Assembly: GCA_037138215.1 (NCBI GenBank)
Contig: JBAXIU010000001.1
Span: 1-57,148, forward strand
DNA: 57,148 bases
Source of the DNA: Candidatus Peregrinibacteria bacterium
GTDB taxonomy: Bacteria; Patescibacteriota; Gracilibacteria; CAIRYL01
Reading direction: 5' to 3'
In this document: piece by piece, positions 336 through 41,773 of the stretch
How the letters are laid out: each line of letters starts with the position of its first letter
Numbering within the stretch: position 1 is the stretch's first letter
The notes under the pieces: model-generated
The model's database searches: none
Seen by the model: the letters and a program-made list of their open reading frames with translations, nothing else
What the model was told of the DNA's origin: nothing
Position numbers and translations under genes: made by a program

Positions 336-3300
336 ATGCCAATTTCTCTTCTTTTAAAAAGGTCTTGGAATTCGTTTCCGTCTTCTGGGCAGGCAGAATT
401 TTTCATTGTTTCTGCTTTCTTTTTTAGTATTGCTTTTTGGTCTCAATCGGCATTTGCAGCATCTCCAGATGTTACGCCACCAACGGTTTCCAGTATTACT
501 TTTAGTGATACGGCACTAAAGGTAGGGGACACGGCAACGGTTACGATTGTGATGAGTGAACCAGTGGTCGGGTTTGACGCTTCAGATATTTTTACTCCTC
601 ATGGTAACCTTAGTCCCCTTTCGAGTGCAGACAATATCACCTTTACGGGAACATTTACCCCTGATTTTGCTACTGAATCAATAGCAAACACGGCAACGGT
701 TGGAACAGGATTTACAGATATTGCTACCAATAGCCCTGTTTCAGGTCTTACTTCTGCGAATTATGCGATTGATACGAAAATTCCAGCTATCAATAGTATT
801 ACTTTTAGTGATACAGCATTAAAGACAGGGGACACGGCAACGGTTACGATTGTTATGAGTGAGCCGGTGGTGGGATTTGAATCATTAGATATTTCTACTC
901 CGAATGGGAGTCTTGGCCCCCTTTCGAGTGCAGACAATATCACTTTTACGGGGACATTTACTCCTACCGGAGCAACTCAAGATGTAACGAATATTGCAAC
1001 GGTGGCCACTACATTTGTAGATCTTTCAGGAAATGCTCCGTTCCCAGGATTAGATTCTGCAAATTATGAGGTAGATACAAAAGCACCCGTTGTTTCCAGT
1101 ATATCTTTAAGCGATATGGCTTTAAAAATTGGGGAAACATCCATCGTAACGATTGTGATGAGTGAACCAGTGGTTGGTTTTAATAGTGCAGATATAACGG
1201 TTACGAATGGAACTATGGGTGCATTATCCACGATAGATGGCATTACTTATACGGGGACATTTACTCCTACTAACGGAATTGAGGCGCCTACTAATACGGT
1301 ATCCGTGGGAAATGGTTTTTCTGATATCGCTGGAAACCCTGCCATATCAGGTGTGAATTCTTCTAATTATGCGATTGATACCAAAGCTCCGAGTATTACA
1401 GGAAGAGTTATTTCTACCAATAATCCCAATGGAACTCTTGCAAAAGCAGGGAATACGGTCACTTTTACTATTTCGTACAGTGAGGCAGTAACAACAGTGG
1501 TGAATATTGCTAGTACTGCTAATAATGTTACAACTCGTACTTCGGATATAAACCCGGCATTATCCAATACCGACACCATTGTTTTTACAGTTATTGCTGG
1601 TAATAATGGGCTTGTTACACCACTCACTATTAATTTCACTATTACCGATGTGGCGGGGAATTCCCTGTTGGTTACGAATTTAACACCTGTAACAGGAAGT
1701 GTTACAGCAGATACCGCTGCACCCATTACTACGCTTGTCAATGTTACACAGCCTGCATTTGTAGAGGGGAATGTCATTGTTACCGCCAGTTCAACGGGAA
1801 CACCTTCATCAGTGTTATATTCTATCATTCGTAATTCTGATAATAGCACTATCGCCACAGGAAACACTGTTGCAGTTGATGGATCTTTTAATAATGTCAC
1901 AGAAGCCGTTACTTCTCTTCCTATTCCTACAGCAGGATGGCTTGCTGGATCCTATAGAGTAGTGGTTTTAGGGACTGATGGGGCAGGAAATGGAGAAATT
2001 GCTGCTTCTTCAAATGCGTTAACTTTCACAGTCTTATCCGCAACAGATACAACCGCACCCCTTATTACGCCGAATGTTGTGCCCGTATCCTCCATCACTC
2101 AAACAGGAGCGAATGTGGATTTTCAAAGTAATGAGACAGGAATGGCAAAAGTGGTATACGGGGTTACCGGTGCATATGGAAGTACCACCGTGTATCAATC
2201 CGTAACCGCCGCTACTGCGGCTTCCATATCATTGGGCGGATTAACATGTGGAACAAGTTACCATTATAGCGTGTATGGAAAGGATGGATCAGGAAATGAA
2301 TCCCATACAACGGATGCCGTATTTGCAACCAGTCCCTGTGCAGTAGGAGATACTTCCTCTCCAACCATTACCTATAACGCTATTGCCAACCAATTTAATC
2401 AAAGTACCGTTCCTACAAATATTGTTTTTACTCTTGCCGATAACACGGCTGTAACAACTCTTACTCTGGCAAATGGAGCATCTGCAACAAATATTTTTGG
2501 AAGTATTGCTGCGGGAACTTATACTCTTCCACTTTCTAATACTCTCGGACTTCACGAATATGTTGTAACGGCAGGAGATGCAGCAGGGAATACAAAGTCG
2601 GTTACTATTACCTATAATGTGTTAGCAAATAGTGTTACCAATGTCGAAATTACCGGGTATACCATCTCAAACCTTACGAATTCTGGATTGACTATTTCTT
2701 GGACGACGGATGGTAATGCGGGGAGTGCGACGAACGGCTTGGTAAGTGTGGTGGATATTCTTGGAAGCGGATTTTCAAACTTAAATCAATCAGCAGTAAT
2801 AACGACCACTGATAATAGCCTTATTATTACGGGGCTTTCTGGAAGTACAAACTATGTTCTTGTCCTCAAATCGAAAATTGTTGGGCAATCTTCATATACT
2901 ACGCTTACTGTTCCGGTTACTACCGCTTCTTCTGGAACAGGAGTAGGGGTAACAGCTATTCAAATGACGAAGTCATACGCCATTGCAGATAATACTTATG
3001 GGAACGGTTGGGAATGGAAGATGGATGTGACCGTCAATAATCTTTTAGAAACAAACTTGGCATTGAAGTTTGCAGATTGGAAGAGTGGGACCAACACGCT
3101 TGTTTCTGGGGGGAATATGAGATACGGAGTAGATTTAGATGCCAATGGAACCATAGACGCTGGAGAATGGAAAGATTTTAGTACTGCCTCACTCGGCGCC
3201 GATGGATATCCTACGGCTTTCATAAATATTGCAGGAATAGATGGGAATACTGCGTTAGGGGGAAGGCAGATAACCGTCATTATCCAGACAAAAGTGCCTT

Positions 3301-3353
3301 TGGGTACTGCAGGCGGATCGTTTAGTACCAGTTACGGAGTAAAAACCCAATAA
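336..3353 (+). CDS. Large secreted/cell-surface protein with Ig-like and fibronectin-III-like repeats
   Basis: 1005-aa ORF. N-terminal hydrophobic segment ends in SAFAA (signal-peptide-like). Three ~101-aa repeats carry TVTIVMSEPVVGF...ITFTGTFTP. FN3-like segments (e.g. ...LTCGTSYHYSVYGKDGSGNES). Terminator follows. Confidence 0.75.
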   Translation: MPISLLLKRSWNSFPSSGQAEFFIVSAFFFSIAFWSQSAFAASPDVTPPTVSSITFSDTALKVGDTATVTIVMSEPVVGFDASDIFTPHGNLSPLSSADNITFTGTFTPDFATESIANTATVGTGFTDIATNSPVSGLTSANYAIDTKIPAINSITFSDTALKTGDTATVTIVMSEPVVGFESLDISTPNGSLGPLSSADNITFTGTFTPTGATQDVTNIATVATTFVDLSGNAPFPGLDSANYEVDTKAPVVSSISLSDMALKIGETSIVTIVMSEPVVGFNSADITVTNGTMGALSTIDGITYTGTFTPTNGIEAPTNTVSVGNGFSDIAGNPAISGVNSSNYAIDTKAPSITGRVISTNNPNGTLAKAGNTVTFTISYSEAVTTVVNIASTANNVTTRTSDINPALSNTDTIVFTVIAGNNGLVTPLTINFTITDVAGNSLLVTNLTPVTGSVTADTAAPITTLVNVTQPAFVEGNVIVTASSTGTPSSVLYSIIRNSDNSTIATGNTVAVDGSFNNVTEAVTSLPIPTAGWLAGSYRVVVLGTDGAGNGEIAASSNALTFTVLSATDTTAPLITPNVVPVSSITQTGANVDFQSNETGMAKVVYGVTGAYGSTTVYQSVTAATAASISLGGLTCGTSYHYSVYGKDGSGNESHTTDAVFATSPCAVGDTSSPTITYNAIANQFNQSTVPTNIVFTLADNTAVTTLTLANGASATNIFGSIAAGTYTLPLSNTLGLHEYVVTAGDAAGNTKSVTITYNVLANSVTNVEITGYTISNLTNSGLTISWTTDGNAGSATNGLVSVVDILGSGFSNLNQSAVITTTDNSLIITGLSGSTNYVLVLKSKIVGQSSYTTLTVPVTTASSGTGVGVTAIQMTKSYAIADNTYGNGWEWKMDVTVNNLLETNLALKFADWKSGTNTLVSGGNMRYGVDLDANGTIDAGEWKDFSTASLGADGYPTAFINIAGIDGNTALGGRQITVIIQTKVPLGTAGGSFSTSYGVKTQ
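492..1400 (+). repeat. Three tandem 303-bp coding repeats inside the surface-protein gene
   Basis: Units start at 492, 795 and 1098 (agtatt/agtata...), each encoding one Ig-like module. Units 1 and 2 share long identical stretches. Confidence 0.85.
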
Positions 3354-3374
3354 TTTGCTGATCATAATACCTTT

Positions 3375-3406
3375 AAAAGCCCATTCTATTGGAATGGGCT
3401 TTTTTG
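3375..3406 (+). terminator. Intrinsic terminator of the surface-protein gene
   Basis: agcccattc / gaatgggct 9-bp stem with 5-nt loop, followed by TTTTT. Confidence 0.8.
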
Positions 3407-3408
3407 TG

Positions 3409-3437
3409 TTGGAAAATATTTGGTATATCTCTATAAT
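3409..3437 (+). promoter_or_regulatory. Sigma70-type promoter for tRNA-Pro
   Basis: TTGGAA (3409-3414), 17-nt spacer, TATAAT (3432-3437). The tRNA starts 12 nt downstream. Confidence 0.6.
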
Positions 3438-3448
3438 ACTTTTTGTGT

Positions 3449-3525
3449 CGGGGTGTAGTTCAGTTGGCTAGAATGCACGGCTGGGGGCCGTGCGGTCGTC
3501 GGTTCGAGTCCGGCCACCCCGACCA
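3449..3525 (+). tRNA. tRNA-Pro (anticodon GGG)
   Basis: Hand-folded cloverleaf. Acceptor CGGGGTG/CACCCCG, anticodon stem CACGG/CCGTG with loop CTGGGGG, T-loop TTCGAGT, encoded CCA. Confidence 0.9.
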
Positions 3526-3540
3526 GTAAGATTGGAAAAG

Positions 3541-3566
3541 GAGAGCAATTTGCTCTCTTTTGTTTT
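3541..3566 (+). terminator. Intrinsic terminator after tRNA-Pro
   Basis: gagagcaa/ttgctctc palindrome followed by ttttgttttt. Confidence 0.6.
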
Positions 3567-3642
3567 TATAGTGCCATTTTTGGTTCGAATACTCATAATC
3601 CTTCAGGTTATTCAGAATGGGCATTGGCTGGAGTTTTTGAAG

Positions 3643-6147
3643 TCATAAGAGCTTTTTCCCCACCCCCCACACTATTCCTACGCCTAAAAATCCCCATACG
3701 GGAAGCCAGTTCACCACCAGTAGCGGTAAAAATGGCACAAAAAGTCCACTCATCACCAAAACTCCCACACTCATAGCAAACGCCATAATAAAGGGAAAAA
3801 CGGTGAGAAAAACCGTCTCTCCCATAAAAAACCACGAAACCCATTTTTTTGGAGCTCCTAATCGAAAAAATCTCCATTCTGTTCGTTTTTGGGTTTCTTT
3901 GTTCACCAATATCATGGCGATAAAACTCAGGACTCCTGCACCGAGGAGTAAAAAGGTAAGAATGCGCACCAAAAGTAGTACTTTATCAACGATAACCGTG
4001 ATCTGCCCTGAGAGTTCTTTGGTTTTTATAGTCGTGACGCTCGGGAATTTTTGCACTATTTGCGATTGCAACGCCGAAAGATGTGACTCCTCTTCCCATG
4101 AAAATCCTAAATACGATGCCGGTGCACCCACGAGCAAGTGTGGCGGAAACACAAAAATAAACCACGGAGAAAACCGGTCTTCTCCAATACTTCGGATGCT
4201 TTTTACCGTTGCCACTATTTTTTTCCCCTGCATATCAAAGGTGAGAGAGTCTCCCAAAACAATGCCCATTTCGTCGGCAAAAGTTTTTTCTACCGATACC
4301 ACGCTTTCTGGTACGCCTGCTGTCCACCAAGTTCCGGCAGTCATGGTTTCCTCGGTGCTCATTTTTTCCCGCGCCGTAGCGCTAAATGCCCGTTGTGCTT
4401 GTGGGTAGGATTCCTCGTTTTCCCGTATTTTTGTGCCTTTCCATTCCTCCAAATAGGTGCGCACAATAGGGTACCACTCCACTTTGGGGATAATGGTATT
4501 TATCGTGGGGACATTTTCCTCTGACACATCAAAAAGTACAAATGTGGGAGCATTTTCATTTTGAGAAAGAGAGAGTTCGTTTTGGACGCTTTTTCCAAAA
4601 CTTCCTGCAGTACAAATGGCAAAAAAGGCGAGAAAAAGAGAGAGAAACACCAGGCGAGTTCCCCGTTTGGGGCGGTGAAAAACAGAGAGGAGAATCCGGA
4701 GGAGAAACGGATGTTTTATGCGTTGGTGAAGAGCATTAAACCACTTTTGGAGGAGATGAAAAAACGAAAGTGCCACCGTAAGAATCCCAATTCCCATGGC
4801 AGAAAAATAGAGAGCGGTAGTAATTTTTGGGAAAAAAAGAACACCCGATAAAATCCAGAGAACGCTCAAAAATAGGGCTTTTTTTAGTCCTGGCGCGTTT
4901 TTTTGGAGGAGTATTTTCCCATTCTCTAAAATATTGGTAAAAAATGTTTTTTTAGGATTTTGATCGCTGGAGGAAGAAATGCGCGAAAGAGGGGAGTCCT
5001 CGGGAACATCTCTGAGAAGCGTACGGGGAGAGAGGGTAAGAATGGGAGAGAGAAGCTCCCCGGAAGCCATGAGGAAAAAGAGTATTGCGATGCCGATTCC
5101 CGGGAAAATATGAAAAAAAGAGAAAGTGGTGGAAAAAATATTAAACTCTTCTGGCACGATATTCGGCAAAAAGAGGAGTGTGATGAGTCCCAATGCACTG
5201 CCAAAAAATCCCAGTACTATGCACCAAATGCCCATAATTCCTAAATATCCCCCCAAAAGGTTTTTTGTTGGCATCCCCATGGCTTTTAAAAGCGCAATAT
5301 GCCGCCGTTCTTTGGTAAAAAAATGTTCTACCCCTAGCAAAAGCGTTCCTCCAAAAAGCGCAATAAGGAGTCCTAAAAATCCCAAAAAGAAATTCTCGGC
5401 CGTTTGGAAAGTGCGGTTTACTCGCCCTCCTTCTTCATTGGCAAGGCGAATGCGTACGCTTTTGGAGATATTTCCGGTAGTGAGACTTGTTTTTATATTT
5501 TCTGCCACTGCGGTGCTGGGCGTTGTAATAGTAAGGGTATAATCCACGCGACTGGTTTTTCGGTCTATTCCACTATGCGCAAATCCCGCCTCGGAAATAA
5601 GAATTTTTCCTCCAAAAAGTGCAGAAGTGTTTTCTATATCTGGCAACGCCTCAAAAATTCCAGCAATGGTAAATACTGCATTCCCTAGGGTGACTTCGGA
5701 TCCTTTGGAAACCGCCAATCGTTCTGCGATATCGGTGCTAATCCAAATCTCTGAATCTTTCGGCATGGTGTACACATTTTCTTTGGTTTTTATACTTCCT
5801 AAAAGGGGATACGCCTGGTCTACCACTTTTACCTGCACCACTAGCGGGGTTTTGTCTTTTCTGAGCATTGCGGTAAATCCCATTTGAGATGAACTTTTAA
5901 TATTTGGCAAAGAAAGACCATTTTTAAGCCCCGGAACGCTTTCTTCGGTAAGGGGTTGGAAATACGAAATTTTTATATCTCCGCCCATCATGGTGGCAGA
6001 CTCCCCCCGTAAAAAATTTTCCGCCGAAGACAGCACGCCCGAAAGTGCGGTAAAAAGGAATGTTCCCAGGAAAATGGTAATGCCGCCTATCCATAAATCG
6101 GGTAGGCGCCGTTTAAAAAGCCGAAAAAAGAGGGGAAGAAAATACAC
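3643..6147 (-). CDS. ABC-transporter permease, FtsX/MacB-like, duplicated (about 10 TM segments)
   Basis: 834-aa ORF with two blocks of hydrophobic helices separated by large extracytoplasmic domains. Architecture is like YbbP/FtsX-family permeases. No ATPase gene is adjacent. Confidence 0.6.
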   Translation of the reverse strand: MYFLPLFFRLFKRRLPDLWIGGITIFLGTFLFTALSGVLSSAENFLRGESATMMGGDIKISYFQPLTEESVPGLKNGLSLPNIKSSSQMGFTAMLRKDKTPLVVQVKVVDQAYPLLGSIKTKENVYTMPKDSEIWISTDIAERLAVSKGSEVTLGNAVFTIAGIFEALPDIENTSALFGGKILISEAGFAHSGIDRKTSRVDYTLTITTPSTAVAENIKTSLTTGNISKSVRIRLANEEGGRVNRTFQTAENFFLGFLGLLIALFGGTLLLGVEHFFTKERRHIALLKAMGMPTKNLLGGYLGIMGIWCIVLGFFGSALGLITLLFLPNIVPEEFNIFSTTFSFFHIFPGIGIAILFFLMASGELLSPILTLSPRTLLRDVPEDSPLSRISSSSDQNPKKTFFTNILENGKILLQKNAPGLKKALFLSVLWILSGVLFFPKITTALYFSAMGIGILTVALSFFHLLQKWFNALHQRIKHPFLLRILLSVFHRPKRGTRLVFLSLFLAFFAICTAGSFGKSVQNELSLSQNENAPTFVLFDVSEENVPTINTIIPKVEWYPIVRTYLEEWKGTKIRENEESYPQAQRAFSATAREKMSTEETMTAGTWWTAGVPESVVSVEKTFADEMGIVLGDSLTFDMQGKKIVATVKSIRSIGEDRFSPWFIFVFPPHLLVGAPASYLGFSWEEESHLSALQSQIVQKFPSVTTIKTKELSGQITVIVDKVLLLVRILTFLLLGAGVLSFIAMILVNKETQKRTEWRFFRLGAPKKWVSWFFMGETVFLTVFPFIMAFAMSVGVLVMSGLFVPFLPLLVVNWLPVWGFLGVGIVWGVGKKLL

Positions 6148-6389
6148 GAAAAAAGGGAGAAGCGTGGAGTACTGTACTCTCTTTTTTGAGAGTTCAACAG
6201 CGCACGAACGAATGGGGGTTGAATTAACATAACTTCCCTTTTTATGTTTTTTTGAGATAATTTTTTGTATTCCTTATAAAAAATTGCACTGAAGAAAACT
6301 GAAAAACACAAATGATTCTGTTTTTTATGCCTTCGTTTTTTTCTCTCAATACGCTATTCTCTCTCCACTTTTATCTTCTTTGATTTTCT

Positions 6390-7484
6390 ATGTCTCTCCA
6401 AATCGGTATTGTCGGGCTTCCCAATGTTGGGAAATCTACCCTTTTTAACGCCATTACGAAGTCTTCTCTTGCGGCAGCAGAAAATTTCCCGTTTTGTACC
6501 ATAGACCCAAATGTGGGAACGATAGAAGTGCCGGATACCCGACTAGATGAATTAGCAACCATTGTTCATCCGCAACGCATTGTGTGCTCTGTTATTGAGT
6601 TTGTGGATATTGCGGGCTTGGTAAAGGGGGCCAGTACTGGTGAGGGCTTGGGGAATCAGTTCCTTTCCCATATTCGTAATTGTGACGCCATTGCAATGGT
6701 AGTGCGGTTTTTTGAGGATTCCAATATTCATCATGTGGATGGGAATATAAACCCCCAACGCGATCGTGAAGTGGTGGAAACAGAGCTGATTTTAGCGGAT
6801 TTACAAACGGTGGAGAAAAATTTAGACCGGGCGGTAAAAGGGGCAAAGAGTGGAAAAAAGGAAGATGTGATAAAAAAAGAGCTGTGCGAACGGCTAAACA
6901 CTTTTTTGGCGGCGGGAAATCCTGCCCGAAAACTCCCCATTACGGAGGAAGAAGTGGTGGCAATGCAAGAGTTGCACCTCCTCACGCAAAAACCAACGCT
7001 GTTTATTGTGAACTGCTCAGAAGATGATTTTACCCGTTTCCAAGAATCTGCTGCGCGAGAAAAATTGGGGCTTTCTCCGGATGAAATCATTGTTCCCATC
7101 TGCGCGAAAACAGAATGCGACCTTATGGATTTTTCGGATGAAGAAGCCCAAGAAATTATGCAGTCTTTGGGGATCCAAGAAAGTGGGCTTTCAAAGCTCA
7201 TTCGTTCTGCGTTTCAATTGTTAGGTTTAGAAAGTTTTTTTACCGCGGGAGAAAAAGAAGTACGGGCATGGACGGTACATAAAAATTCTACCGCGCCCCA
7301 GGCCGCAGGAGTTATTCATACCGATTTTGAGAAAAAGTTTATTAAAGCAGAAGTGTGCCAGGTTTCCGATTTTGTGAAATACAATGGATGGGGAGGCGTT
7401 CGGGAAAACGGAGCCCTGAAAATGGAAGGGAGAGATGCGCTTATCCACGATGGAGATATTTGTATTTTTAAAGTGGGGGCTTAG
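6390..7484 (+). CDS. ychF: Ribosome-binding ATPase YchF (Obg-family GTPase fold)
   Basis: N-terminus MSLQIGIVGLPNVGKSTLFNAIT (P-loop), DIAGLVKGAS, C-terminal TGS-like region, 364 aa. Confidence 0.9.
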   Translation: MSLQIGIVGLPNVGKSTLFNAITKSSLAAAENFPFCTIDPNVGTIEVPDTRLDELATIVHPQRIVCSVIEFVDIAGLVKGASTGEGLGNQFLSHIRNCDAIAMVVRFFEDSNIHHVDGNINPQRDREVVETELILADLQTVEKNLDRAVKGAKSGKKEDVIKKELCERLNTFLAAGNPARKLPITEEEVVAMQELHLLTQKPTLFIVNCSEDDFTRFQESAAREKLGLSPDEIIVPICAKTECDLMDFSDEEAQEIMQSLGIQESGLSKLIRSAFQLLGLESFFTAGEKEVRAWTVHKNSTAPQAAGVIHTDFEKKFIKAEVCQVSDFVKYNGWGGVRENGALKMEGRDALIHDGDICIFKVGA

Positions 7485-10806: not shown

Positions 10807-13236
10807 CTATTTTTTATTATTTTTTTCCACTTTGTCTGGTGTGGCATTGGTATAATGGAGTACAAACTCCATTATTTTGGCAAAGGTTGGGGAAGCGGTA
10901 GTGGACCCAAATGTTTTATCCCCGACGCGTGGACGGTCAAATTTTACGAGAATCAGAAAACGGGGATTATCCACAGGGGCGTATCCAATAAAACTCGTAA
11001 TGGTATTTCCATCTTCTTTTAAACTCTCATACCCAGGGCCGTCTATTCTGGAAATTTGAGAAGTTCCTGTTTTTCCCGCAATGTAAAATCCAGGGACTTG
11101 CGCTCTTTTGGCGACTCCATTTTCCGTCGCGCTAATGAGCATCCTTTTGATGCTTTCCGCCACTTTTGGGTCAATAACGCGGGTCCGTTTTTCTTTTGTT
11201 TTTTCCACGCTTCCATCGGGGTAGTCAAGTTCATCTACCAAATACGGATTTACCATATATCCATTATTTGCGAGGACGCTCCAGGCTCGAATAACTTGCA
11301 AAGGCGTTGCCGCAAACCCCTGTCCAAATCCAGCGTTTAAAAGCTGGGCATCAGACCATTTTTTGTAATGGGTAATAATTCCGGGTACTTCTCCGGCAAT
11401 GGGCATATTGATGTACTCTCCAAATCCAAATTTTTTCAGAGCATCGTATACCAGTGGTTTCTCCATCTTCTGGGTTACAAAGACCATTCCCAAATTCGCA
11501 GATCTCTCTAAAATGTTGGTCATGGTCTGGGATCCGAGATATTTATTATCCGAATTTTTAATCTCAAATTTTCCCACTTTCATGGGTTCGGTTTCTATAT
11601 AACGACTGTATTCAGTAATTTCTCCGTCATCTATTCCGGCTGCCATTACGATGGGTTTTATAACCGATCCTGGCTCATAAATATCCATAACGGATTTGTT
11701 GAGGTAGCTTCCTGGTCCTAAGCGGTTTTCAAATCGGTAAAATTCAGGGTTATATTCTTTATCCCATGCCTCGTTCCAATCTTTAAAAGTTGTGAGAACA
11801 AAGTTTCCATTTACATCTTTTCTCTCTAATGGCGTTGTTTTATAGATAATTCCTCTATCTTTGGGGCTTGTGCGTTCTCTCAGATACACATTTCCAAAAA
11901 AATTGGGATCGAAACTGGGGCTTCCCGCCATAGCGAGAATTTTTCCCGTTTGAGGATCCATAACAATTACCTGCCCAGAGTCCGCATCGTATTTTTCTAC
12001 CGCTTCAGAAAGCACTTTTTCTACCTCTTGCTGGATAATACGGTCTACGGTGAGGACGATATCTGCGCCGTTTTTTACGCGCTGGATGGTGTTTCCTTGG
12101 ATTTCTACCGCATTCCCATGGATGTCCCGTTGTCCTTCTATAACCCCTTTTTCACCCCTAAGAATGCTATCGAATTTTTCTTCCACTCCATAATTTCCCT
12201 TTCCGGCAGCATCTACAAACCCAATACTCTGTGCCAACAGTCCTCCTTCTGGATAATATCGAGAAGGCTGTGGTGAAAATCCAACACCTTGCCATGCATC
12301 AGGAGTAACGGGCGCGGGATTAGGAATTCCTTTTTTTTGTTCTGCATACAATCGGTTGAGGTCTTTAAAATAGGCATTCCGGGAAGCGGTTTTTTTGTCT
12401 TCTATGACCTCTTTAATCGTTGGGGGAACACGGTCTAATACCTTCACATATTGCACCGGTTTGGGAGCGATAGAATCGGCAATATCTTTTGCTGCTCCCC
12501 CCAGGTATTTTTGGAGGGCATTGGCAACAGGGAGTCTTTTTTGAAAATTTTCGGCCTCTCGTTGTTTTTTTTCTTCGGCAGTAATATGGGCGTCAAATTG
12601 GTAAGAGGGCGTAATAATATCTCCATCTACCCATATTTCTTGGGTTTGGCGCGAAACTCGTACTCCTGGAATGGCGAGACCTTCAATGCCCTTCATCATT
12701 TCTTCTGACGCCTGGGTCGCCAGTAATATTTGAGTCCGAATACGGGGCGTTATTTTTGCTTTTAAGTCGGTATAAAAGGCCTTTTTGGCGTCTTCTCTCA
12801 GGGGAGGAACGGGAACTTTTATGGCTCCTTCTTCTAGGTAGGTTACACTTCCTGGAGGACATACTTTTAGGTCGTCTTCACAGCGTTGGAACTCCTCTTC
12901 GGTATACAGGAGTGCCGTGAGTTCTTTTGCAATATATTCAGGATCGCTGGTAATAGAAGGATCTACAAAAATCTCATACTGGGTGGTATTGATGGCGAGG
13001 GGGACCAGATCTCCTGTTTTTGAGTCTCGGGTGAGGATTTTTCCGCGCTGAGGGGTAATTTCTATTTTTGCAGATCGTTGTGCGTAGGCTTCGGAACGGA
13101 TTTCCTCTCCCTTAACCACTTGCAAAAAAAAGAGTCGTCCAAGAATTATTGCAAAAAGAAGTCCCGTAATCCAGATGAAAATCCGAAGACGATGGCTTTC
13201 TGACGCTCCAGTGGAGGAATTGAAAAAAGAGTTCAT
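10807..13236 (-). CDS. Penicillin-binding protein (class B transpeptidase, PBP2/FtsI-like) with long insertions
   Basis: N-terminal TM helix. SVIKP (SxxK) and KTGT motifs. 809 aa. Confidence 0.8.
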   Translation of the reverse strand: MNSFFNSSTGASESHRLRIFIWITGLLFAIILGRLFFLQVVKGEEIRSEAYAQRSAKIEITPQRGKILTRDSKTGDLVPLAINTTQYEIFVDPSITSDPEYIAKELTALLYTEEEFQRCEDDLKVCPPGSVTYLEEGAIKVPVPPLREDAKKAFYTDLKAKITPRIRTQILLATQASEEMMKGIEGLAIPGVRVSRQTQEIWVDGDIITPSYQFDAHITAEEKKQREAENFQKRLPVANALQKYLGGAAKDIADSIAPKPVQYVKVLDRVPPTIKEVIEDKKTASRNAYFKDLNRLYAEQKKGIPNPAPVTPDAWQGVGFSPQPSRYYPEGGLLAQSIGFVDAAGKGNYGVEEKFDSILRGEKGVIEGQRDIHGNAVEIQGNTIQRVKNGADIVLTVDRIIQQEVEKVLSEAVEKYDADSGQVIVMDPQTGKILAMAGSPSFDPNFFGNVYLRERTSPKDRGIIYKTTPLERKDVNGNFVLTTFKDWNEAWDKEYNPEFYRFENRLGPGSYLNKSVMDIYEPGSVIKPIVMAAGIDDGEITEYSRYIETEPMKVGKFEIKNSDNKYLGSQTMTNILERSANLGMVFVTQKMEKPLVYDALKKFGFGEYINMPIAGEVPGIITHYKKWSDAQLLNAGFGQGFAATPLQVIRAWSVLANNGYMVNPYLVDELDYPDGSVEKTKEKRTRVIDPKVAESIKRMLISATENGVAKRAQVPGFYIAGKTGTSQISRIDGPGYESLKEDGNTITSFIGYAPVDNPRFLILVKFDRPRVGDKTFGSTTASPTFAKIMEFVLHYTNATPDKVEKNNKK

Positions 13237-20346: not shown

Positions 20347-20359
20347 TTTGGGAAAAATA

Positions 20360-20397
20360 GACCCCGCGGGTTTTTCGGTCCATTAACCCGCGGGGTC
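20360..20397. repeat. 12-bp-stem GC-rich hairpin downstream of dapA
   Basis: gaccccgcgggt (20360-20371) and acccgcggggtc (20386-20397) are perfect reverse complements with a 14-nt loop. No U-tract after the stem. Confidence 0.8.
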
Positions 20398-20407
20398 GAA
20401 CAGGAGG

Positions 20408-20436
20408 TTGACAACCAAAAATGCTTCCCTTATATT
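20408..20436 (+). promoter_or_regulatory. Near-consensus sigma70 promoter
   Basis: TTGACA (20408-20413), exactly 17 nt, TATATT (20431-20436). Confidence 0.7.
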
Positions 20437-20452
20437 TTGCCAGCACTCTGGA

Positions 20453-20554
20453 ATGAGTAATTTTTTATCCATGAACTTCTTGAAGAAAACGATTTTTGGC
20501 GGAAAAGTTTGTACATGCTGCGTATGTTTTTGCCCGGAGGGCGGAATATCGTAG
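20453..20554 (+). CDS. 33-codon Cys-rich micro-ORF (candidate leader peptide or precursor peptide)
   Basis: ATG 20453 to TAG 20552-20554 gives MSNFLSMNFLKKTIFGGKVCTCCVCFCPEGGIS, with 5 Cys in 8 consecutive codons (20510-20533). It lies between the promoter and the terminator and is too short for the ORF track. Confidence 0.45.
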   Translation: MSNFLSMNFLKKTIFGGKVCTCCVCFCPEGGIS

Positions 20555-20591
20555 TTTTTCATTTCCCACAGTAAAAGAAAAATATACGAGA

Positions 20592-20619
20592 ATCTGCCCG
20601 ACCCGGGCAGATTTTTTTG
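20592..20619 (+). terminator. Intrinsic terminator (possible attenuator)
   Basis: atctgcccg (20592-20600) / cgggcagat (20604-20612) 9-bp stem followed by T7. The upstream segment tgcccgg (20531-20537) can compete for the right arm. Confidence 0.8.
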
Positions 20620-20648
20620 TTTATTTATTCTTTTACTTTTTACATTCT

Positions 20649-20759
20649 ATGTCCGAAATAATTCACCGAGGAGTTGCCTCTGTTGCACGCCAAACTCAAT
20701 TACAAAATAACGGAAAAAGACGGAGAAATGCCCCAGAAGGATGGCTTTTCGAGGAGTAA
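20649..20759 (+). CDS. 36-aa small ORF ending in FEE
   Basis: ATG 20649 sits in the same ttctATGTC context as many genes here and gives MSEIIHRGVASVARQTQLQNNGKRRRNAPEGWLFEE. It is the only part of tracked ORF 20496-20759 that lies downstream of the terminator. Confidence 0.3.
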   Translation: MSEIIHRGVASVARQTQLQNNGKRRRNAPEGWLFEE

Positions 20760-20810
20760 TATTCTCATATTCTTCCTTTCATCCAACAACAGGCAGCAGC
20801 TCTCCATTTT

Positions 20811-21452
20811 ATGCTTCCGGATGCTCAGCCCTCAGACGAACAGGAAATTTTAGAACGGTCTGGAGATACACAGGCTTTGATGAAATATCTTCGTCCACGG
20901 CTTCATCCGGCAACTCGGCATTACGCCGATTCTATTGCTCCTCTCGTGGAAAGGCTTAAAACCGTAAGAACTAAGGAAGAGTCCGGCGAAATAATACATG
21001 CGTTTAATGCCTATATGCTGCCCACACTCCAAAACAGCAGCGCTTTTCAGGAGGCGCAGGAACATTTCACCTACCGAAAACAGCCCATTGTCGCCATTCC
21101 TGTAGAAATACGAGGAAAAATCTCTTATCTCCAGTGGAATCTTTTACATTTCCCTGAAGGATTTACGACTCCTCCGCACGATCACCCTGGAGTCGCATCA
21201 GAAGCCGCTATTCATGGCTATGGTGAAGAAAGGTATTACAGTCCCACTCCAAAAAAGGATGATCATGGATCTGTACTTCACGAAAAAGTCGGGAATCGCA
21301 TTATTATGCCGGGAGCAATCGTAACGGTTTCTGCAGAAGATAATTCTCCCGAAGTACTGCGCCACACAATAGAAGCAATATACAAAGATCTCTTTCAATC
21401 TAATATTTATTTCGGAAAAGATCTGGAATGCGCACGGATACCCATCCAATAA
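20811..21452 (+). CDS. Cupin-fold protein resembling cysteine (thiol) dioxygenase type I
   Basis: FPEGFTTPPHDHPGVASEAAIHGYGEERYY parallels the CDO block (pG..TpiHDH.....vl.G.l.E..Y). A further His lies in VLRHTIEA. 213 aa. Confidence 0.45.
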   Translation: MLPDAQPSDEQEILERSGDTQALMKYLRPRLHPATRHYADSIAPLVERLKTVRTKEESGEIIHAFNAYMLPTLQNSSAFQEAQEHFTYRKQPIVAIPVEIRGKISYLQWNLLHFPEGFTTPPHDHPGVASEAAIHGYGEERYYSPTPKKDDHGSVLHEKVGNRIIMPGAIVTVSAEDNSPEVLRHTIEAIYKDLFQSNIYFGKDLECARIPIQ

Positions 21453-21491
21453 TCTTCTTCCCTTCCCTCTTTTTGTATTTTTTTATCTCCT

Positions 21492-22436
21492 ATGTCTGCT
21501 CCTCTCAAACCCATTGGCATTTACTATGAAAATGAAAAATGGCTGCTTCCTCTTTTTGCCGAACTAAAAAAACAAAATATCCCGTTTGAAAAACTATTTG
21601 CTCCCGATCATCTCTTTGTTCCTCATCACCGAGAAAGCCCATATTCCCTGGTGATAAACCGCATGAGTCCGTCGGCGCATAAAAGAAATGCGGGACATAC
21701 TATCCTCTATACGCTCCAATATCTTGCATATCTTAAAAGCATTGGAGCCAATTTTCTGAATGGTTATGAAACCTTCGTTTTAGAATCCTCAAAAGCCTAT
21801 CAGGCAAATATTTTTGAGGAACTCGACATAAAATATCCCAAAACCGTCGTGGTAAACGATATCCAAAATCTTGTCCGTGCTTCAGAGAAACTTCGCTTTC
21901 CCGTCCTCACAAAATCAAACATTGGGGGAAGTGGTGCAGGAATTCAAAAGTTTCATTCTCGAGACGATCTTCAAAAAGCGGTAGCAGATAAATCACTGGA
22001 AGTGAGTGTGGATAATATCATCTTGCTTCAAGAATACCTGACCCCAAAAGGTGGAACCATTGTGCGGGTAGAAGTGCTGAACGACGAATTTCTCTACGCC
22101 ATAAAAATAAATGTGCAGGGAGAATCCTTTAACCTTTGCCCAGCGGAAGATTGTGGTACGGAAGGTTCTGCGTGTACCATTGCCCGAAGCATTGCGGCGG
22201 AGAATTACCTTCCTCCTCTTGCAGTCATTGAAACCGTGAAAAAAATATTTCAGCACACTGGGATTGAAATAGGGGGCGTGGAATATCTCGTAAACGAAGA
22301 GGATGGGGAAATATACTATTACGATATTAACACCCTCTCCAATTTTGTAACAAATGCTACGGATGTAGTGGGATTTGATCCTTGGCAAAATTTTGTAGAA
22401 TATATTGTGCAGAAAGCGGAAGGTGGAAATTTCTAA
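21492..22436 (+). CDS. ATP-grasp ligase (RimK / glutathione-synthetase-like fold)
   Basis: FPVLTKSNIGGSGAGIQKF, ILLQEYL, and GGVEYLVNEEDGEIYYYDINTLSNF match ATP-grasp nucleotide and Mg-binding blocks. Confidence 0.7.
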   Translation: MSAPLKPIGIYYENEKWLLPLFAELKKQNIPFEKLFAPDHLFVPHHRESPYSLVINRMSPSAHKRNAGHTILYTLQYLAYLKSIGANFLNGYETFVLESSKAYQANIFEELDIKYPKTVVVNDIQNLVRASEKLRFPVLTKSNIGGSGAGIQKFHSRDDLQKAVADKSLEVSVDNIILLQEYLTPKGGTIVRVEVLNDEFLYAIKINVQGESFNLCPAEDCGTEGSACTIARSIAAENYLPPLAVIETVKKIFQHTGIEIGGVEYLVNEEDGEIYYYDINTLSNFVTNATDVVGFDPWQNFVEYIVQKAEGGNF

Positions 22437-22453
22437 ATCATCTCTCCTTTTTT

Positions 22454-23239
22454 ATGAAAAAAATCCTTGTTTTTCAACACGCTGGATACAAGCCCTACGG
22501 AACGCTCAATCCTCTTCTCAAAGAGAAAGGGCTTCGGCTGCGGTATGTAAATTTTGACCGCGATGCAGAGGCAAAACCGAGTATGGAGAAATACCACGGA
22601 TTGGTGGTTTTTGGGAGCGATAAGGGAGTGTATGAATCCCAAAAACACGAACATATTAAAACCGAAATGCAGGTCATTGAAGAGGCGTTGAAAAAGGGAG
22701 TTCCTATCCTGTGCATTTGTTTTGGTGCCCAAATGCTGGCAAGTGTATTGGGCGCCGAAGTGCGTAAAAGTCCGGTAAAAGAAATAGGATGGCATGATGT
22801 GCACCTCACTGAGGAAGGGCAAAAAGATGCGCTCCTCTCTCATTTTCAGAGTCCGGAAAAGGTTTTTCAGTACCATCGAGATACCTTTGATATTCCCCAA
22901 ACTGCCACGCATTTGGCGTATTCGGATGCGTTGCCAGCACAAGCATTTCGATATGGAGAACACGCTTATGGTCTGCAATTTCATTTAGAGGTGAATCCGC
23001 TCAATATTTCTCGGTGTCTTCAAAATGAAAAAAATAAGAATGAGATGCAAGAGATCCATGGAGAATCTTTTGAAGAAAAAATAAAAGCGCATACTCATCA
23101 GCATATTGCTCGTTCTATGGATTTAAGCCAAAAAACATTTTCCGCATTTATAGATTTATTTGGTTTCCAAAAATCCATTATTTTGGGGTCTGATCATGGT
23201 GGAAAAATAACCACTGGAGATGAATTTTTTCGCGTATAA
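22454..23239 (+). CDS. Class I glutamine amidotransferase-like protein (standalone GATase1 / peptidase C26 fold)
   Basis: PILCICFGAQMLA (nucleophile Cys elbow) and YGLQFHLE (His-Glu of the triad). Start at MKKILVFQH. Confidence 0.7.
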   Translation: MKKILVFQHAGYKPYGTLNPLLKEKGLRLRYVNFDRDAEAKPSMEKYHGLVVFGSDKGVYESQKHEHIKTEMQVIEEALKKGVPILCICFGAQMLASVLGAEVRKSPVKEIGWHDVHLTEEGQKDALLSHFQSPEKVFQYHRDTFDIPQTATHLAYSDALPAQAFRYGEHAYGLQFHLEVNPLNISRCLQNEKNKNEMQEIHGESFEEKIKAHTHQHIARSMDLSQKTFSAFIDLFGFQKSIILGSDHGGKITTGDEFFRV

Positions 23240-23366
23240 AAAAACGAGATAGGGGGTTTTGGGAGTATGAAAAATGAATTTTCTACTTTTTTTTAAAAAA
23301 CCCCTTGCACAGAGGTTTTGATTTCGATACTCTGCCCCAGCTTTATTTTTCTTCACGAGTACCCCA

Positions 23367-37200: not shown

Positions 37201-37809
37201 ATGGAAGTACCATACGAAGAAAAACTGGAAAAAATTAATGATTTTATTAATAAAACACTAGAAGAAACCAGTTGTGTTATTGAGCAATTAAACGGGAAAA
37301 AATGTATGCGAACTTTGGCGTTGCTATCCTTTGCACATATGGAAGTTTTTGCAAGTTATTGGTGTCTTTATAAAGGGAAAAAAGAAGATCACGGAGATAA
37401 AATTAAGGACTGGATAAATACTTTTTTTCTCACAGAAAAAAACATTTACATGGAAGAATCTCCACACTACAAAAATATAACTGACATAGAATTATATAAA
37501 ATAAGATGTAATACTGTTCATTTTTTCTCTCCCCGTCTCCCTGATAAGTTTCTTCCTAAAAGAATAGGAATAACGGAAGATGAAAGAAGTATGAATCCCA
37601 ACGATGCTAAAAATATTTTTGATTTCGGAACTATTCTGATATCCAATAGATCTTTACTTCTCTTGATATTAGAGGGTGCAAAGCTCATGTTAAATGCCTT
37701 ATTAGATAATAGTGATCCCAATCATATTCCAGGAATAGAAAGAATTTATAAAAAAATCAATGAAGAAGGAGGTGAACAAATAAATATTGATAATCATGCC
37801 AATTCATAA
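37201..37809 (+). CDS. Hypothetical protein (202 aa) bracketed by identical REP palindromes
   Basis: ATG 37201 (MEVPYEEKLEK...). A/T-rich relative to neighbours. Its stop overlaps the RAYT start by 14 nt. No motif recognised. Confidence 0.5.
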   Translation: MEVPYEEKLEKINDFINKTLEETSCVIEQLNGKKCMRTLALLSFAHMEVFASYWCLYKGKKEDHGDKIKDWINTFFLTEKNIYMEESPHYKNITDIELYKIRCNTVHFFSPRLPDKFLPKRIGITEDERSMNPNDAKNIFDFGTILISNRSLLLLILEGAKLMLNALLDNSDPNHIPGIERIYKKINEEGGEQINIDNHANS

Positions 37810-38476
37810 TGGATTTCAAATTCAACCGGCCCCCAACCGTAGAGACGCATTGCAATGCGTCTCTACAACCGAACCATCCGAAAAATTCCAAAATAAATAC
37901 CGTATTCCCTCCGCCCGCCTAAAAAATTACGATTATGGCGAGGACGGCGCATATTTTGTAACCATTTGTACCAAAAATCGGGAACCGTTTTTTGGAGAAA
38001 TAAAAAACGGGAAAATGCAATTATCAAAAATAGGGAAAATTATTGAGGAGGAATGGCAAAAAACGGTAGAAATACGAAAAAATATCACACTGGGCGAATG
38101 GGTGGTAATGCCGAATCATGTACATGGGATTATTTTTATTAACGGGAACAGTGACGGGGAAGGGTGTAGAGACGCGATTCATCGCGTCTCTGTAAAAAAC
38201 ACAGATGCGATTCATCGCAACACAGACGCCATAAATGGCGTCTCTACAAATGGCGGCATTACAAAAAACAATAACCCTATGTTACACGAAAATTTATCAA
38301 CCATTATAAGATGGTATAAAGGGCGTACAACATTTGAAATACGAAAATTTAATCCTGATTTTTCCTGGCAACCCCGATTTCATGACCATATCATTCGTAA
38401 TGAAACGGAATTAACCAAAATTTCTGAATATATTTTTCATAATCCACAAAACTGGGTACAAGACGATTATTTTTGA
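37796..38476 (+). CDS. REP-associated tyrosine transposase (RAYT), IS200/IS605 Y1 (HUH) family
   Basis: YRIPSARLKNYDYGEDGAYFVTICTKNREPFFG, the HUH motif in MPNHVHGIIFI, and C-terminal WQPRFHDHIIRNE..L..I.EYI..NP. REP palindromes lie inside the ORF. Confidence 0.8.
   Translation: MPIHNGFQIQPAPNRRDALQCVSTTEPSEKFQNKYRIPSARLKNYDYGEDGAYFVTICTKNREPFFGEIKNGKMQLSKIGKIIEEEWQKTVEIRKNITLGEWVVMPNHVHGIIFINGNSDGEGCRDAIHRVSVKNTDAIHRNTDAINGVSTNGGITKNNNPMLHENLSTIIRWYKGRTTFEIRKFNPDFSWQPRFHDHIIRNETELTKISEYIFHNPQNWVQDDYF
37839..37866. repeat. 28-bp perfect palindrome, REP family A copy 2 (in RAYT codons 15-24)
   Basis: Identical to 37038-37065. Translated RRDALQCVST. Confidence 0.9.
38165..38247. repeat. Three family A-like palindromes inside the RAYT ORF
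   Basis: tgtagagacgcgattcatcgcgtctctgta (38165-38194), degenerate acagatgcgattcatcgcaacaca (38201-38224), and agacgccataaatggcgtctctac (38224-38247). They lie between the HUH motif and the C-terminal catalytic region. Confidence 0.85.
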
Positions 38477-39719: not shown

Positions 39720-40397
39720 ATGGCACTGGAAGATATGGTATTGGGCGGATCGGAAAGCGCAGGAGATGGCGGGAAAGAGGGGGGAAGTGAAGCGGCAAAA
39801 GAAGCCGCTGAGAAAGTACGAGAACAAAAAGCCAAAGCCGCCGCGCAGGCAAAGAGGGATCAACAAAACGAACGACGGAAAAAATCAGAGGATAATACCC
39901 TCGCACAAATTATTCTCCAGTTCCTCAAGAATCCTCGTTATTCTGGATTTTTTCTTCTCATTGCACGGGCCCTTTCTAAAAATATTCCTTCCGATTTTTT
40001 ACTCGCTATTTTAGCGCTTATTCATAAAGATTCAGCCCAAATTCTCCATGAGAAAAATATCCCCCGAAGAAATCCTCCAAAACCTCATTCTTCTGCCTTT
40101 CCTCCTGAGCTTTCTGCTCCATTGGCAGAATGGACTATTCTCATGTATTCGGTTTCTACGGCAGAGCCACACCGCGTATTGGAAACTATTCTGGATGAAA
40201 ATTGGGAATTGGATGCCAATACAGTACAACTCTGCGCCTTGGTCGTGCGAGAATTTTTCTTTTTTAAGAAATTCGAAACCCCCTTTCCTCATATTCAACA
40301 ATTCTCAGAAAATTTTCTCAAAACCCTCGCTACCGACTTGGAAAACCAAATTCAAAACCAGCAGATTTTAGAAACCGCGGAAGAGGATAATTTTTAG
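39720..40397 (+). CDS. Hypothetical protein with charged Lys/Glu/Ala-rich N-terminus
   Basis: 225-aa ORF. No motif recognised. Its stop overlaps the convergent purB stop by 4 nt. Confidence 0.45.
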   Translation: MALEDMVLGGSESAGDGGKEGGSEAAKEAAEKVREQKAKAAAQAKRDQQNERRKKSEDNTLAQIILQFLKNPRYSGFFLLIARALSKNIPSDFLLAILALIHKDSAQILHEKNIPRRNPPKPHSSAFPPELSAPLAEWTILMYSVSTAEPHRVLETILDENWELDANTVQLCALVVREFFFFKKFETPFPHIQQFSENFLKTLATDLENQIQNQQILETAEEDNF

Positions 40398-41773
40398 TTC
40401 TCGTTTTCTGAATCTGGCGTAGCAAATTTTTCCACCATTTGTGCTGCCAGCCCAATATAGGTTTCTGGGGTCAGCATTTGGAGTGCTTTTTTCTCTTTTT
40501 CGGGAAGGTTGAGTCCTCCGACAAATGCCCGAAAATCTTCAATCGTAATGCGCTTTCCACGGGTTAGCTCTTTCAGTTTTTCGTAGGGTTTTTCTATTCC
40601 GTGTTTGCGCATAACTGTTTGCGCCGCTTCGCCCAGCACTTCTACATTGGCATTCAGCTCTTTGCTACAGGTTTCTTGCACCACCTCTAATTTTTCTATT
40701 CCAATTTTTAAACTCTTGAGAGCGAGAAGAGAATGCCCAAATGCTACGCCTACATTACGGAGAATAGTGGAATCGGTAAGATCTCGTTGAAAGCGAGAAA
40801 CGGGTAGTTTTTCTGCAAAAAACCGAAAGAGAGCATTCGCAATCCCAAAATTTCCTTCTGCATTTTCAAAATCAATGGGATTTACTTTATGCGGCATGGT
40901 GGAAGATCCAATTTCTCCTGCACGGGTTTTTTGTTTAAAAATTCCCCGAGAAATGTATCCCCAACTATCACGAGAAAAATCAATGAGAATTGTATTTAAA
41001 AGGGCAACAGTGTTGGAAATTTCCGCAATATAATCATGGGATTCAATCTGATCGGTAATGGGATTCCAAGTAAGCCCCAAAGATTCTACAAATTCTTGTG
41101 AAATTTCTAGCCAGGGAGCCTTAGGATACGCCGCAATGTGCGCATTAAAATTCCCCGTTGCACCATTTATTTTCCCTAAAAAATCCTGGTGTTCGAGTGC
41201 GTCCATTTGGGGTGACATACGAGACGCAAACAGGAAAAAGGCTTTTCCAAGGGTGGTGGGAGACGCCGGTTGTCCATGGGTAAGCGCCAGAAGAGGAATA
41301 TTCTTCCACTCTTTTGCGCGGGTCTCAATGGCGTGCAAAATTTCGTCGTACGCTGGCATCATTACCTCATCCATCGCATCTTTTAGCATTAACGAATAGG
41401 CGAGATTATTAATATCTTCACTGGTACACGCAAAATGGATCCATTCGGCAACATCTTCCAAAGAAGTTCCTGCAAGTTTTTCTTTTAAAAAGTACTCTAC
41501 GGCCTTAACATCATGTTTTGTAGTCGCTTCTATTTCTTTTATTCTCAGTGCGTCTTCCTCTGAAAAATTTTTAAGAATCCGTGCGAGTATTTCTCGTTCT
41601 TTATTGGTAAGACTCCGAAGTTCCTCAATTTCACTTCTCTCCGCTAAATACTGAAACCAGTTTATTTCCACTAATAGGCGGTAAAACAGGAGCGCTTTTT
41701 CTGAAAAAAACGGAGAGAGATCTTTTGTTTTTTCGGCATATCGTCCATCGAGTGGGGAAAGGGAGGTAACCAT
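40394..41773 (-). CDS. purB: Adenylosuccinate lyase
   Basis: SPLDGRY, TSEDINN, GSSTMPHKVNP (fumarate-lyase signature), and a C-terminal ADSL_C-like region. Confidence 0.95.
   Translation of the reverse strand: MVTSLSPLDGRYAEKTKDLSPFFSEKALLFYRLLVEINWFQYLAERSEIEELRSLTNKEREILARILKNFSEEDALRIKEIEATTKHDVKAVEYFLKEKLAGTSLEDVAEWIHFACTSEDINNLAYSLMLKDAMDEVMMPAYDEILHAIETRAKEWKNIPLLALTHGQPASPTTLGKAFFLFASRMSPQMDALEHQDFLGKINGATGNFNAHIAAYPKAPWLEISQEFVESLGLTWNPITDQIESHDYIAEISNTVALLNTILIDFSRDSWGYISRGIFKQKTRAGEIGSSTMPHKVNPIDFENAEGNFGIANALFRFFAEKLPVSRFQRDLTDSTILRNVGVAFGHSLLALKSLKIGIEKLEVVQETCSKELNANVEVLGEAAQTVMRKHGIEKPYEKLKELTRGKRITIEDFRAFVGGLNLPEKEKKALQMLTPETYIGLAAQMVEKFATPDSENEN

Follow-up and report, generated by a model that had tools for sequence, protein, structure and literature searches.

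The classical leader-peptide transcription attenuators are those of Escherichia coli, trpL, hisL, pheL, thrL and ilvL. A small first gene ahead of a leaky terminator is also found in operons for ribosomally made, post-translationally modified peptides (RiPPs) and bacteriocins, where it encodes the precursor peptide, as in the case of lantibiotic structural genes. Cysteine codons are known to serve in leaders too: tandem Cys codons and an intrinsic terminator occur together in uORFC-8-2, a motif found upstream of cysS in Rhodobacterales (PMC8632094); mycobacterial polycysteine leaderless short open reading frames (ORFs), Ms5788A and others, have been shown experimentally to control cysteine-related operons (10.1101/834739); and a 2005 study predicted terminator-less Cys leader peptides for Actinobacteria (PMC1262725). 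Here we analyze a leader of this general kind in a 57,148-nt stretch (the window) of a contig from a Candidatus Peregrinibacteria metagenome-assembled genome, in which a promoter, a 33-codon Cys-rich ORF and an intrinsic terminator stand ahead of three genes on the same strand. An earlier sequence-only reading of this DNA had noted the arrangement and known of no described Cys-codon leader attenuator, a statement that the three reports above contradict.

Attenuation is the best-supported explanation of this promoter/ORF/terminator arrangement. From the layout of the locus and its predicted folds, we consider it probable that the element acts as a ribosome-mediated leader-peptide transcription attenuator, responding to the supply of cysteinyl-tRNA and controlling the three-gene block. 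Three rival explanations, each less probable to differing degrees, are weighed below against the evidence that bears on them.

Promoter, leader ORF and competing helices

The leader is composed of the following features, with its interacting segments numbered 1 to 4 in 5' to 3' order.

20408..20436, plus strand: sigma-70-type promoter, TTGACA-17 nt-TATATT, matching 11/12 consensus positions
20453..20554, plus strand: leader ORF of 33 codons, MSNFLSMNFLKKTIFGGKVCTCCVCFCPEGGIS, from ATG 20453 to TAG 20552-20554
20510..20533, plus strand: candidate regulatory codon run TGT, TGC, TGC, TGT, TGC, five Cys in eight codons (20-27)
20517..20555, plus strand: 1:2 hairpin, 17 imperfect pairs, 20517-20535 with 20539-20555, -17.5 kcal/mol
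20529..20537, plus strand: segment 1, UUUGCCCGG, with alternative pairing to the terminator right arm 20603-20611 (segment 4)
20539..20599, plus strand: 2:3 antiterminator, GGGCGGA (20539-20545) with UCUGCCC (20593-20599), 7 pairs, -22.5 kcal/mol
20588..20618, plus strand: 3:4 intrinsic terminator, core stem AUCUGCCCG/CGGGCAGAU (20592-20600 / 20604-20612), U7 at 20612-20618, -18.9 kcal/mol

Promoter, ORF, five-Cys run and terminator all lie where the sequence-only reading had placed them. Only two sites in the window come within one mismatch of the promoter consensus at a 17-nt spacer, and the one at 20408-20436 would start transcription at about 20442-20443, some 7 nt past TATATT, leaving a predicted 5' untranslated region (UTR) of about 10 nt. 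The leader ORF is absent from the gene calls. Its run of five Cys in eight codons occurs nowhere else in the six frames of the window, where second-order Markov simulations predict 0.035 such runs and where Cys makes up 0.63% of the codons of 26 genes. Two of the Cys codons are consecutive (codons 22-23, TGC TGC), and the stop codon follows six codons past the run.

No Shine-Dalgarno motif precedes ATG 20453. Such motifs are nearly absent within 25 nt of the 47 gene starts in the window (for example those at 17171 and 21492 on the plus strand and at 40394 and 14794 on the minus strand); the upstream regions are instead pyrimidine-rich, with runs like CTCTTTTTTCT and often with CTCC or CCC just before the ATG. 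This composition suggests that initiation in this Peregrinibacteria genome is independent of Shine-Dalgarno pairing. Because genes of the window almost never carry the motif, its absence from the leader ORF is uninformative.

The stem of the terminator extends to 13 pairs (6 of them G-C, 20588-20616) and ranks among the strongest terminator-like sites of the window. Sites of this kind outnumber shuffled expectation (37 versus 23.3 +/- 5.4, and 41 versus 23.1 +/- 4.9), and intrinsic terminators are therefore clearly used in this genome. No promoter-like site, even at 8/12 matches, lies between the terminator and the first gene, so that the three genes apparently depend on read-through.

Upstream of the terminator, the RNA offers a full set of competing helices. 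In the 1:2 hairpin the left arm consists of Cys codons 2-5 and the right arm of segment 2 plus the stop codon; a U5 tract (20556-20560) follows directly, and together they resemble a hairpin-dependent pause site. The 2:3 helix, the actual antiterminator, which the sequence-only reading had missed, pairs GGGCGGA with the left arm of the terminator and stacks on an inner hairpin (20549-20589) that holds the stop codon of the ORF. Folding in silico, which that reading had called for, thus yields mutually exclusive 2:3 and 3:4 structures competing for segment 3, and the attenuator layout it had proposed turns out to have a fuller anatomy, with a pause-like 1:2 hairpin, a 2:3 antiterminator and a 3:4 terminator. 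Its own competing pair, UGCCCGG (20531-20537, overlapping the last Cys codon) with the right arm of the terminator, does form in the minimum-free-energy fold, although the right arm CCGGGCA lies at 20603-20609 and not at 20604-20610.

That fold, computed for 20441-20625, has an energy of -51.7 kcal/mol (z = -3.07; 1 of 200 shuffles folds as well) and contains no local terminator: segment 1 is paired with segment 4 and segment 2 with segment 3. For the leader as a whole, forcing the terminator state (1:2 plus 3:4) gives -47.6 kcal/mol, versus -51.7 kcal/mol for the state with 2:3 and 1:4. We assessed this competition against 1000 dinucleotide-preserving shuffles of the 145 nt upstream of the terminator (20443-20587). 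The local terminator remained intact in 99.8% of them; at least six bases of its left arm were paired upstream in 0/1000, and the right-arm equivalent was seen in 0.2%. Because shuffles fail to reproduce the left-arm competitor, the competing arms are not a product of chance and look designed. The terminator is palindromic, and segments 1-2 repeat it directly though imperfectly, which is why segment 1 is able to pair with segment 4 as well.

A 20-nt direct repeat with 70% identity links 20435-20454 and 20528-20547 (TTTTGCCAGCACTCTGGAAT / TTTTGCCCGGAGGGCGGAAT). The predicted transcript start and the ATG fall within the first copy and attenuator segments 1-2 within the second; the repeat may be a trace of the element's origin by duplication.

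Could an ordinary promoter and an ordinary terminator simply flank a meaningless short ORF, with no regulation at all? We consider such a juxtaposition very unlikely. Short ORFs are abundant (107 of at least 25 aa in 8 kb), promoter-like sites with at least 9/12 matches are not enriched over shuffles in the window, and the leader is known from a single sequence, all of which chance would accommodate. It does not readily accommodate the coincidence, within 211 nt, of a promoter at 11/12 matches, a Cys run expected 0.035 times, an upstream competitor that no shuffle reproduced and a fold with so low a z-score; and an explanation is needed for a strong terminator that separates three real genes from the sole promoter-like site.

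Ribosome position and the direction of control

The sequence-only reading had held that the direction of regulation cannot be deduced from sequence. Modelling of the ribosome footprint does assign a direction, if by inference. We masked a 28-nt footprint (-15 to +12 around the first base of the A site) at each codon in turn and calculated how probable each pairing was in the nascent RNA. On ribosome-free RNA, or when the A site stood anywhere up to the second Cys codon (Cys2), 2:3 pairing reached 0.97-0.99 and 1:4 pairing 0.96, giving one long hairpin. The G+C-rich base of this composite hairpin abuts the U-tract, and by the usual geometric rule it should terminate transcription. With the A site at Cys3, Val or Cys4 (20519-20525), the 2:3 helix was preformed at 0.97-0.99 while 1:4 fell to 0.66, 0.18 and 0, respectively; the local terminator at equilibrium stood at 0, 0.31 and 0.55, and at such a stall it must displace a 2:3 helix that has already formed. 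From 20528 through the stop codon, 2:3 was lost and the terminator reached 0.93-0.95. On these pairing probabilities, plentiful Cys-tRNA would lead to termination and a stall within the Cys run to read-through, which points to cysteine limitation as the condition under which the genes would be transcribed.

We therefore picture the attenuator, as derived from sequence and modelling, in the following way. Transcription would begin about 7 nt past the TATATT box, and the 33-codon ORF would be translated almost from the 5' end of the RNA. The Cys-codon run (segment 1) would pair with the stop-codon region (segment 2), and this hairpin with its U5 tract probably pauses the polymerase. When Cys-tRNA is plentiful, the ribosome would reach the stop codon and cover segment 2, the 3:4 terminator would form, and the transcript would end at the U7 tract. 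When Cys-tRNA is scarce, the ribosome would stall with Cys3-Cys4 in its A site, covering segment 1 and leaving segment 2 free; 2:3 would then pair, segment 4 would be left partnerless, and the polymerase would read through into the genes. Without a ribosome, 2:3 and 1:4 would form one long hairpin ending at the U-tract, making termination the predicted default state as well. The sequence features of the leader, their statistical excess and the mutually exclusive folds are properties of the sequence itself; the transcript start, like ORF translation, polymerase pausing and a cysteine response, is predicted from them.

The same helices could in principle work without any translation, either as a terminator/antiterminator switch controlled by a protein or ligand or as a small RNA of about 175 nt, the Cys frame being a by-product of UG-rich arms. 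The Cys codons do sit in hairpin arms (a local 6-bp hairpin at 20513-20527 and the 1:2 helix), so that structure could have shaped the sequence; the promoter-terminator unit is self-contained; and the predicted 5' UTR is short and has no Shine-Dalgarno motif, a lack that says nothing in a genome generally missing it. Yet a purely structural origin leaves to accident a frame that stays open for 33 codons, its ATG just past the predicted start and its stop within the antiterminator, and a Cys run so rarely expected in any frame. No riboswitch or other RNA family in Rfam matches the leader, and the footprint geometry fits the positions of the codons. We accordingly give a translation-independent RNA little credence, and regard cysteine-responsive attenuation as the better account of the helices.

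The downstream genes and their block

The leader heads a compact block of genes that the closest related genome lacks. The features of the block are these.

20347..23262, plus strand: whole block, about 2.9 kb, absent between dapA and infA in the closest genome (L005)
20360..20397, plus strand: perfect 13-bp inverted repeat GACCCCGCGGGTT / AACCCGCGGGGTC with a 12-nt loop, directly after the dapA stop, at the left end of the block
20811..21452, plus strand: first structural gene, encoding a 213-aa ORFan for which neither homologue nor family was detected
21492..22436, plus strand: RimK/LysX-like ATP-grasp ligase of an uncharacterised family, assigned by family matches
22454..23239, plus strand: class-I glutamine amidotransferase / peptidase C26-like protein, TM1158-like

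The sequence-only reading had taken the first of these genes for a thiol/cysteine dioxygenase. We found no Pfam match for it even at E up to 10, no NCBIfam match, no meaningful PDB sequence match and no homologue among 1.84 billion representatives (phmmer), and its single-sequence AlphaFold model is unusable (pLDDT 37.8), so that the assignment finds no backing. By eye, a cupin-like G-x5-HxH (HDH...E) motif can be made out around residues 116-131. The ATP-grasp ligase, in contrast to this ORFan, has more than 7500 relatives, the best of them (other than itself) about 51% identical and those with a named source mostly from Chloroflexi; its best family matches are RimK, LysX and Ddl. The best non-self relatives of the amidotransferase are about 61% identical, the named ones belonging to Bdellovibrionota, and it shows weak similarity to plant gamma-glutamyl peptidase.

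Some indication of what the ATP-grasp family does comes from its surroundings in other phyla, where homologues adjoin rhodanese, CysM/CysO/MoeZ-like and sulfite-reductase-like genes. We examined nine loci of homologues 48-51% identical to the ATP-grasp ligase of the window. A rhodanese gene lies directly upstream in 3/9 (L087, 4084-5990; L171; and L172, 3061-4996). The L171 cluster (336-6197, all on one strand) runs from a CysM-like cysteine synthase through a JAB protease, a ThiS/MoaD-like carrier, DUF4395, a redoxin and the rhodanese to the ATP-grasp gene and then a MoeZ/MoeB-like adenylyltransferase-sulfurtransferase. In L003 (882-4975), the start of the ATP-grasp gene overlaps the end of a siroheme/NirA-type cluster encoding a tetrapyrrole methylase, a NirA-type sulfite/nitrite reductase and CbiX, and redoxin/AhpC or CMD genes are neighbours at two further loci. 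Anecdotal as these neighbourhoods are, they suggest that the family may act in sulfur or cysteine metabolism, as would suit a leader that senses cysteine. A search for Cys-rich leader ORFs ahead of ATP-grasp and amidotransferase homologues at 11 other loci, and in L005, turned up out-of-frame noise only. A CCC-containing ORF in L004 was rejected as a leader, since by eye it lies within the apparent true 5' end of a regulator gene; likewise, a 315-aa neighbour of the amidotransferase homologue in L169 proved to be a protein unrelated to the ATP-grasp ligase.

The block is flanked on its 5' side by MgtC-like, Maf and DapA genes and on its 3' side by infA, rpmJ, rpsM, rpsK and rpsD, and holds a hairpin, the promoter, the leader ORF, the terminator and the three genes (ORFan, ATP-grasp ligase and class-I amidotransferase). 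L005 is the closest genome among GTDB species representatives (DapA 82% identical), and with dapA as bait it was the only close genome found, no metagenome contig exceeding 55% identity. In L005 a spacer of 93 nt (6880-6972) is all that separates dapA from infA, and the infA promoter region aligns with about 23262-23366 of the window. By this alignment, 20347-23262 is an insertion or deletion difference relative to L005. At the right junction lies a degenerate copy of the 3' end of dapA (TTTGGGA...AAAAATGAATTTTCT), which hints at insertion, and at the left junction a tandem duplication of TTTGGGAAA(AA)TAG. No mobility gene was seen within 20347-23262.

Absent from the L005 spacer between dapA and infA, the inverted repeat at 20360-20397 carries a U-rich tail on the minus strand and no U-tract on the plus strand, and is probably an insulator or terminator hairpin. 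We considered and dismissed the idea that this hairpin and that at 20588-20618 are repeated or mobile elements, as each is unique within the window. Elsewhere in the window, an IS200-like Y1 transposase domain is encoded at 37787-38476 (Pfam E = 2.5e-6), and in L005 a 213-aa ORF 3' of the ribosomal protein genes (11221-11862) resembles the Y1 transposase ORF of the window by eye. A further strong terminator-like hairpin (10 pairs and U8, without an Rfam match) lies on the minus strand at 41895-41918, in the divergent spacer between the genes for adenylosuccinate lyase (40394-41773, minus strand) and an acetolactate-synthase-like protein (41970-43658, plus strand), where it occupies the would-be 5' leader of the adenylosuccinate lyase gene. 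As an internal control, we looked for a second leader-type element 5' of the ilvB-like gene and found no convincing short ORF.

The company of these enzymes raises the question of whether the ORF instead encodes a functional Cys-rich peptide, a RiPP precursor or a scaffold for the enzymes of the block. The ATP-grasp ligase, the amidotransferase-like hydrolase and the ORFan would then process the peptide, and the terminator would merely set a high ratio of peptide to enzyme. The block is compact and on one strand, and the peptide gene does lead it, ahead of those for an ATP-grasp and a peptidase-C26-like protein; with a promoter of its own and no counterpart in the closest genome, the whole block has the look of a self-contained cassette. 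Within the peptide, the FGG-K junction is reminiscent of cleavage sites of the double-glycine type, and besides Cys the core has Lys, Thr, Glu and Ser. Double-glycine leaders have conserved hydrophobic and acidic positions at -4, -7, -8 and -12; here the GG is formed by residues 16-17 and position -4 is Ile, with Lys at -7, Leu at -8 and Ser at -12 departing from that consensus. The sequence-only reading had put forward a precursor peptide as its alternative, and our searches turned up no maturase, C39 transporter or peptide relative that would sustain it. Pfam matches among the scanned ORFs of the window include no C39 peptidase/ABC exporter, radical-SAM, YcaO or lanthipeptide enzyme; the top 25 family matches of the ATP-grasp ligase include no RiPP maturase; and the gene neighbourhoods of ligase homologues are varied and metabolic, with no small Cys-rich ORF next to the gene. 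Metagenome contigs yielded no relative of the peptide, the exact sequence of which is also absent from 15 billion called proteins. A peptide function also leaves unexplained why the 3' end of the ORF copies both arms of the terminator and why its stop codon lies inside a competing helix. A functional peptide is, in our judgment, a doubtful explanation, about as improbable as a translation-independent RNA.

Several points nevertheless weigh against attenuation by Cys-tRNA supply. In the footprint model, read-through is confined to a narrow window of stalls at Cys3-Cys4 that depends on the assumed footprint, and the composite hairpin survives a stall at the first Cys codon. Even with segment 1 masked, the terminator is still favoured at equilibrium (0.55 versus 0.41 at Cys4), and because of this slight thermodynamic preference the switch must be kinetic, as the trp attenuator likewise is. 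The mechanism would also imply coupled transcription and translation in a host from the Candidate Phyla Radiation (CPR). The leader is moreover known from one sequence: the sole other contig read, L001 from the same strain, is identical across it, a translated scan of JGI metagenome contigs found no relatives of the peptide, and the nearest genome lacks the block. No Rfam model matches, the best being Phe_leader, whose 26.8 bits (E = 0.23) fall short of its gathering threshold of 55; a gathering-threshold Rfam scan of the whole window returned only tRNAs. As for the genes themselves, they do not form a recognisable biosynthetic operon. The ORFan has no assignable function, and its homologues are absent from 5.8 billion protein clusters and from one genome per GTDB species; the pairing of ATP-grasp and amidotransferase genes was not found at other loci of homologues; and the link to sulfur comes from 4-5 of the nine neighbourhoods, all of homologues only 48-51% identical.

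If the attenuator is real, it would extend classical ribosome-coupled attenuation to the CPR, from which we know of no example, although no literature search was directed at one, and would imply that an organism with a reduced genome couples transcription to translation and senses Cys-tRNA. For three genes that are otherwise unreadable, among them a complete ORFan and a member of a widespread, uncharacterised ATP-grasp family with sulfur-metabolism neighbours, it would moreover offer a clue to function drawn from regulation. A more far-reaching proposal, which we think unlikely though worth stating, is that the leader marks the ORFan/ATP-grasp/amidotransferase block as a hitherto unknown pathway, related to cysteine or thiols, that a CPR bacterium with a reduced genome induces under cysteine shortage. 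This would provide the first functional handle on this large uncharacterised ATP-grasp family, which travels with rhodanese and CysO/CysM/MoeZ-like genes in other phyla. In a bolder variant still, the 33-aa peptide would also be a substrate or scaffold for the enzymes of the block.

Comparison with described leaders

Of the arrangements set out at the beginning, the RiPP and bacteriocin operons share with this locus a small first gene that a hairpin separates from the enzyme genes, and a product with a Gly-Gly motif and a C-terminal part rich in Cys. They differ in that the locus has no maturation or export genes of a known class and no peptide family, and in that its coding sequence itself carries the competitor of the terminator.

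The polycysteine ORFs of mycobacteria and Actinobacteria are similarly unannotated short ORFs in first-cistron position with a C-terminal Cys tract. In the mycobacterial case, stalling on the Cys codons relieves repression of downstream genes that are related to cysteine or sulfur. Control in the example studied in detail is translational, however: the stalled ribosome opens a duplex in which the next gene's ribosome-binding site is hidden (10.1101/834739), and the mRNAs are truly leaderless and have no intrinsic terminator. The Peregrinibacteria leader has instead a predicted 5' UTR of about 10 nt, a strong terminator about 190 nt ahead of the first gene, and no Shine-Dalgarno sites.

The uORFC-8-2 motif comes closer in mechanism. 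It too places Cys codons in a first stem, followed by a second stem with a U-run that acts as terminator, and read-through has been proposed to occur when Cys-tRNA is scarce (PMC8632094). Its two tandem Cys codons stand at positions 14-15, in contrast to five of eight at codons 20-27 here; it controls a cysteinyl-tRNA synthetase; and it is represented by 145 examples with a consensus model, whereas the present leader is a single instance from a different phylum. An Rfam scan detected no homology between the two, the inclusion of the motif among the Rfam models being unconfirmed.

In its architecture the leader most fully parallels the trpL type. In both, a promoter is followed by a short ORF in which codons for one amino acid cluster near the 3' end, shortly before the stop; four segments form 1:2, 2:3 and 3:4 alternatives; and an intrinsic terminator, complete with U-tract, precedes the first structural gene. 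The distance from the regulatory codons to the U-tract (about 80-100 nt) and the energy balance are similar as well. In contrast to trpL-type leaders, the amino acid that would be sensed here is cysteine, there is no similarity in sequence or to an Rfam model, the CPR host does without Shine-Dalgarno usage, and the controlled genes lack the identity of a biosynthetic operon. Segment 1 here also pairs with segment 4, so that the ribosome-free form is a single long hairpin. The locus thus establishes no new regulatory principle, Cys-codon attenuators of both the translational and the terminator-based kind having already been described. Judged by its layout, it is probably an independently evolved case of Cys-codon attenuation that would act like uORFC-8-2 and trpL.

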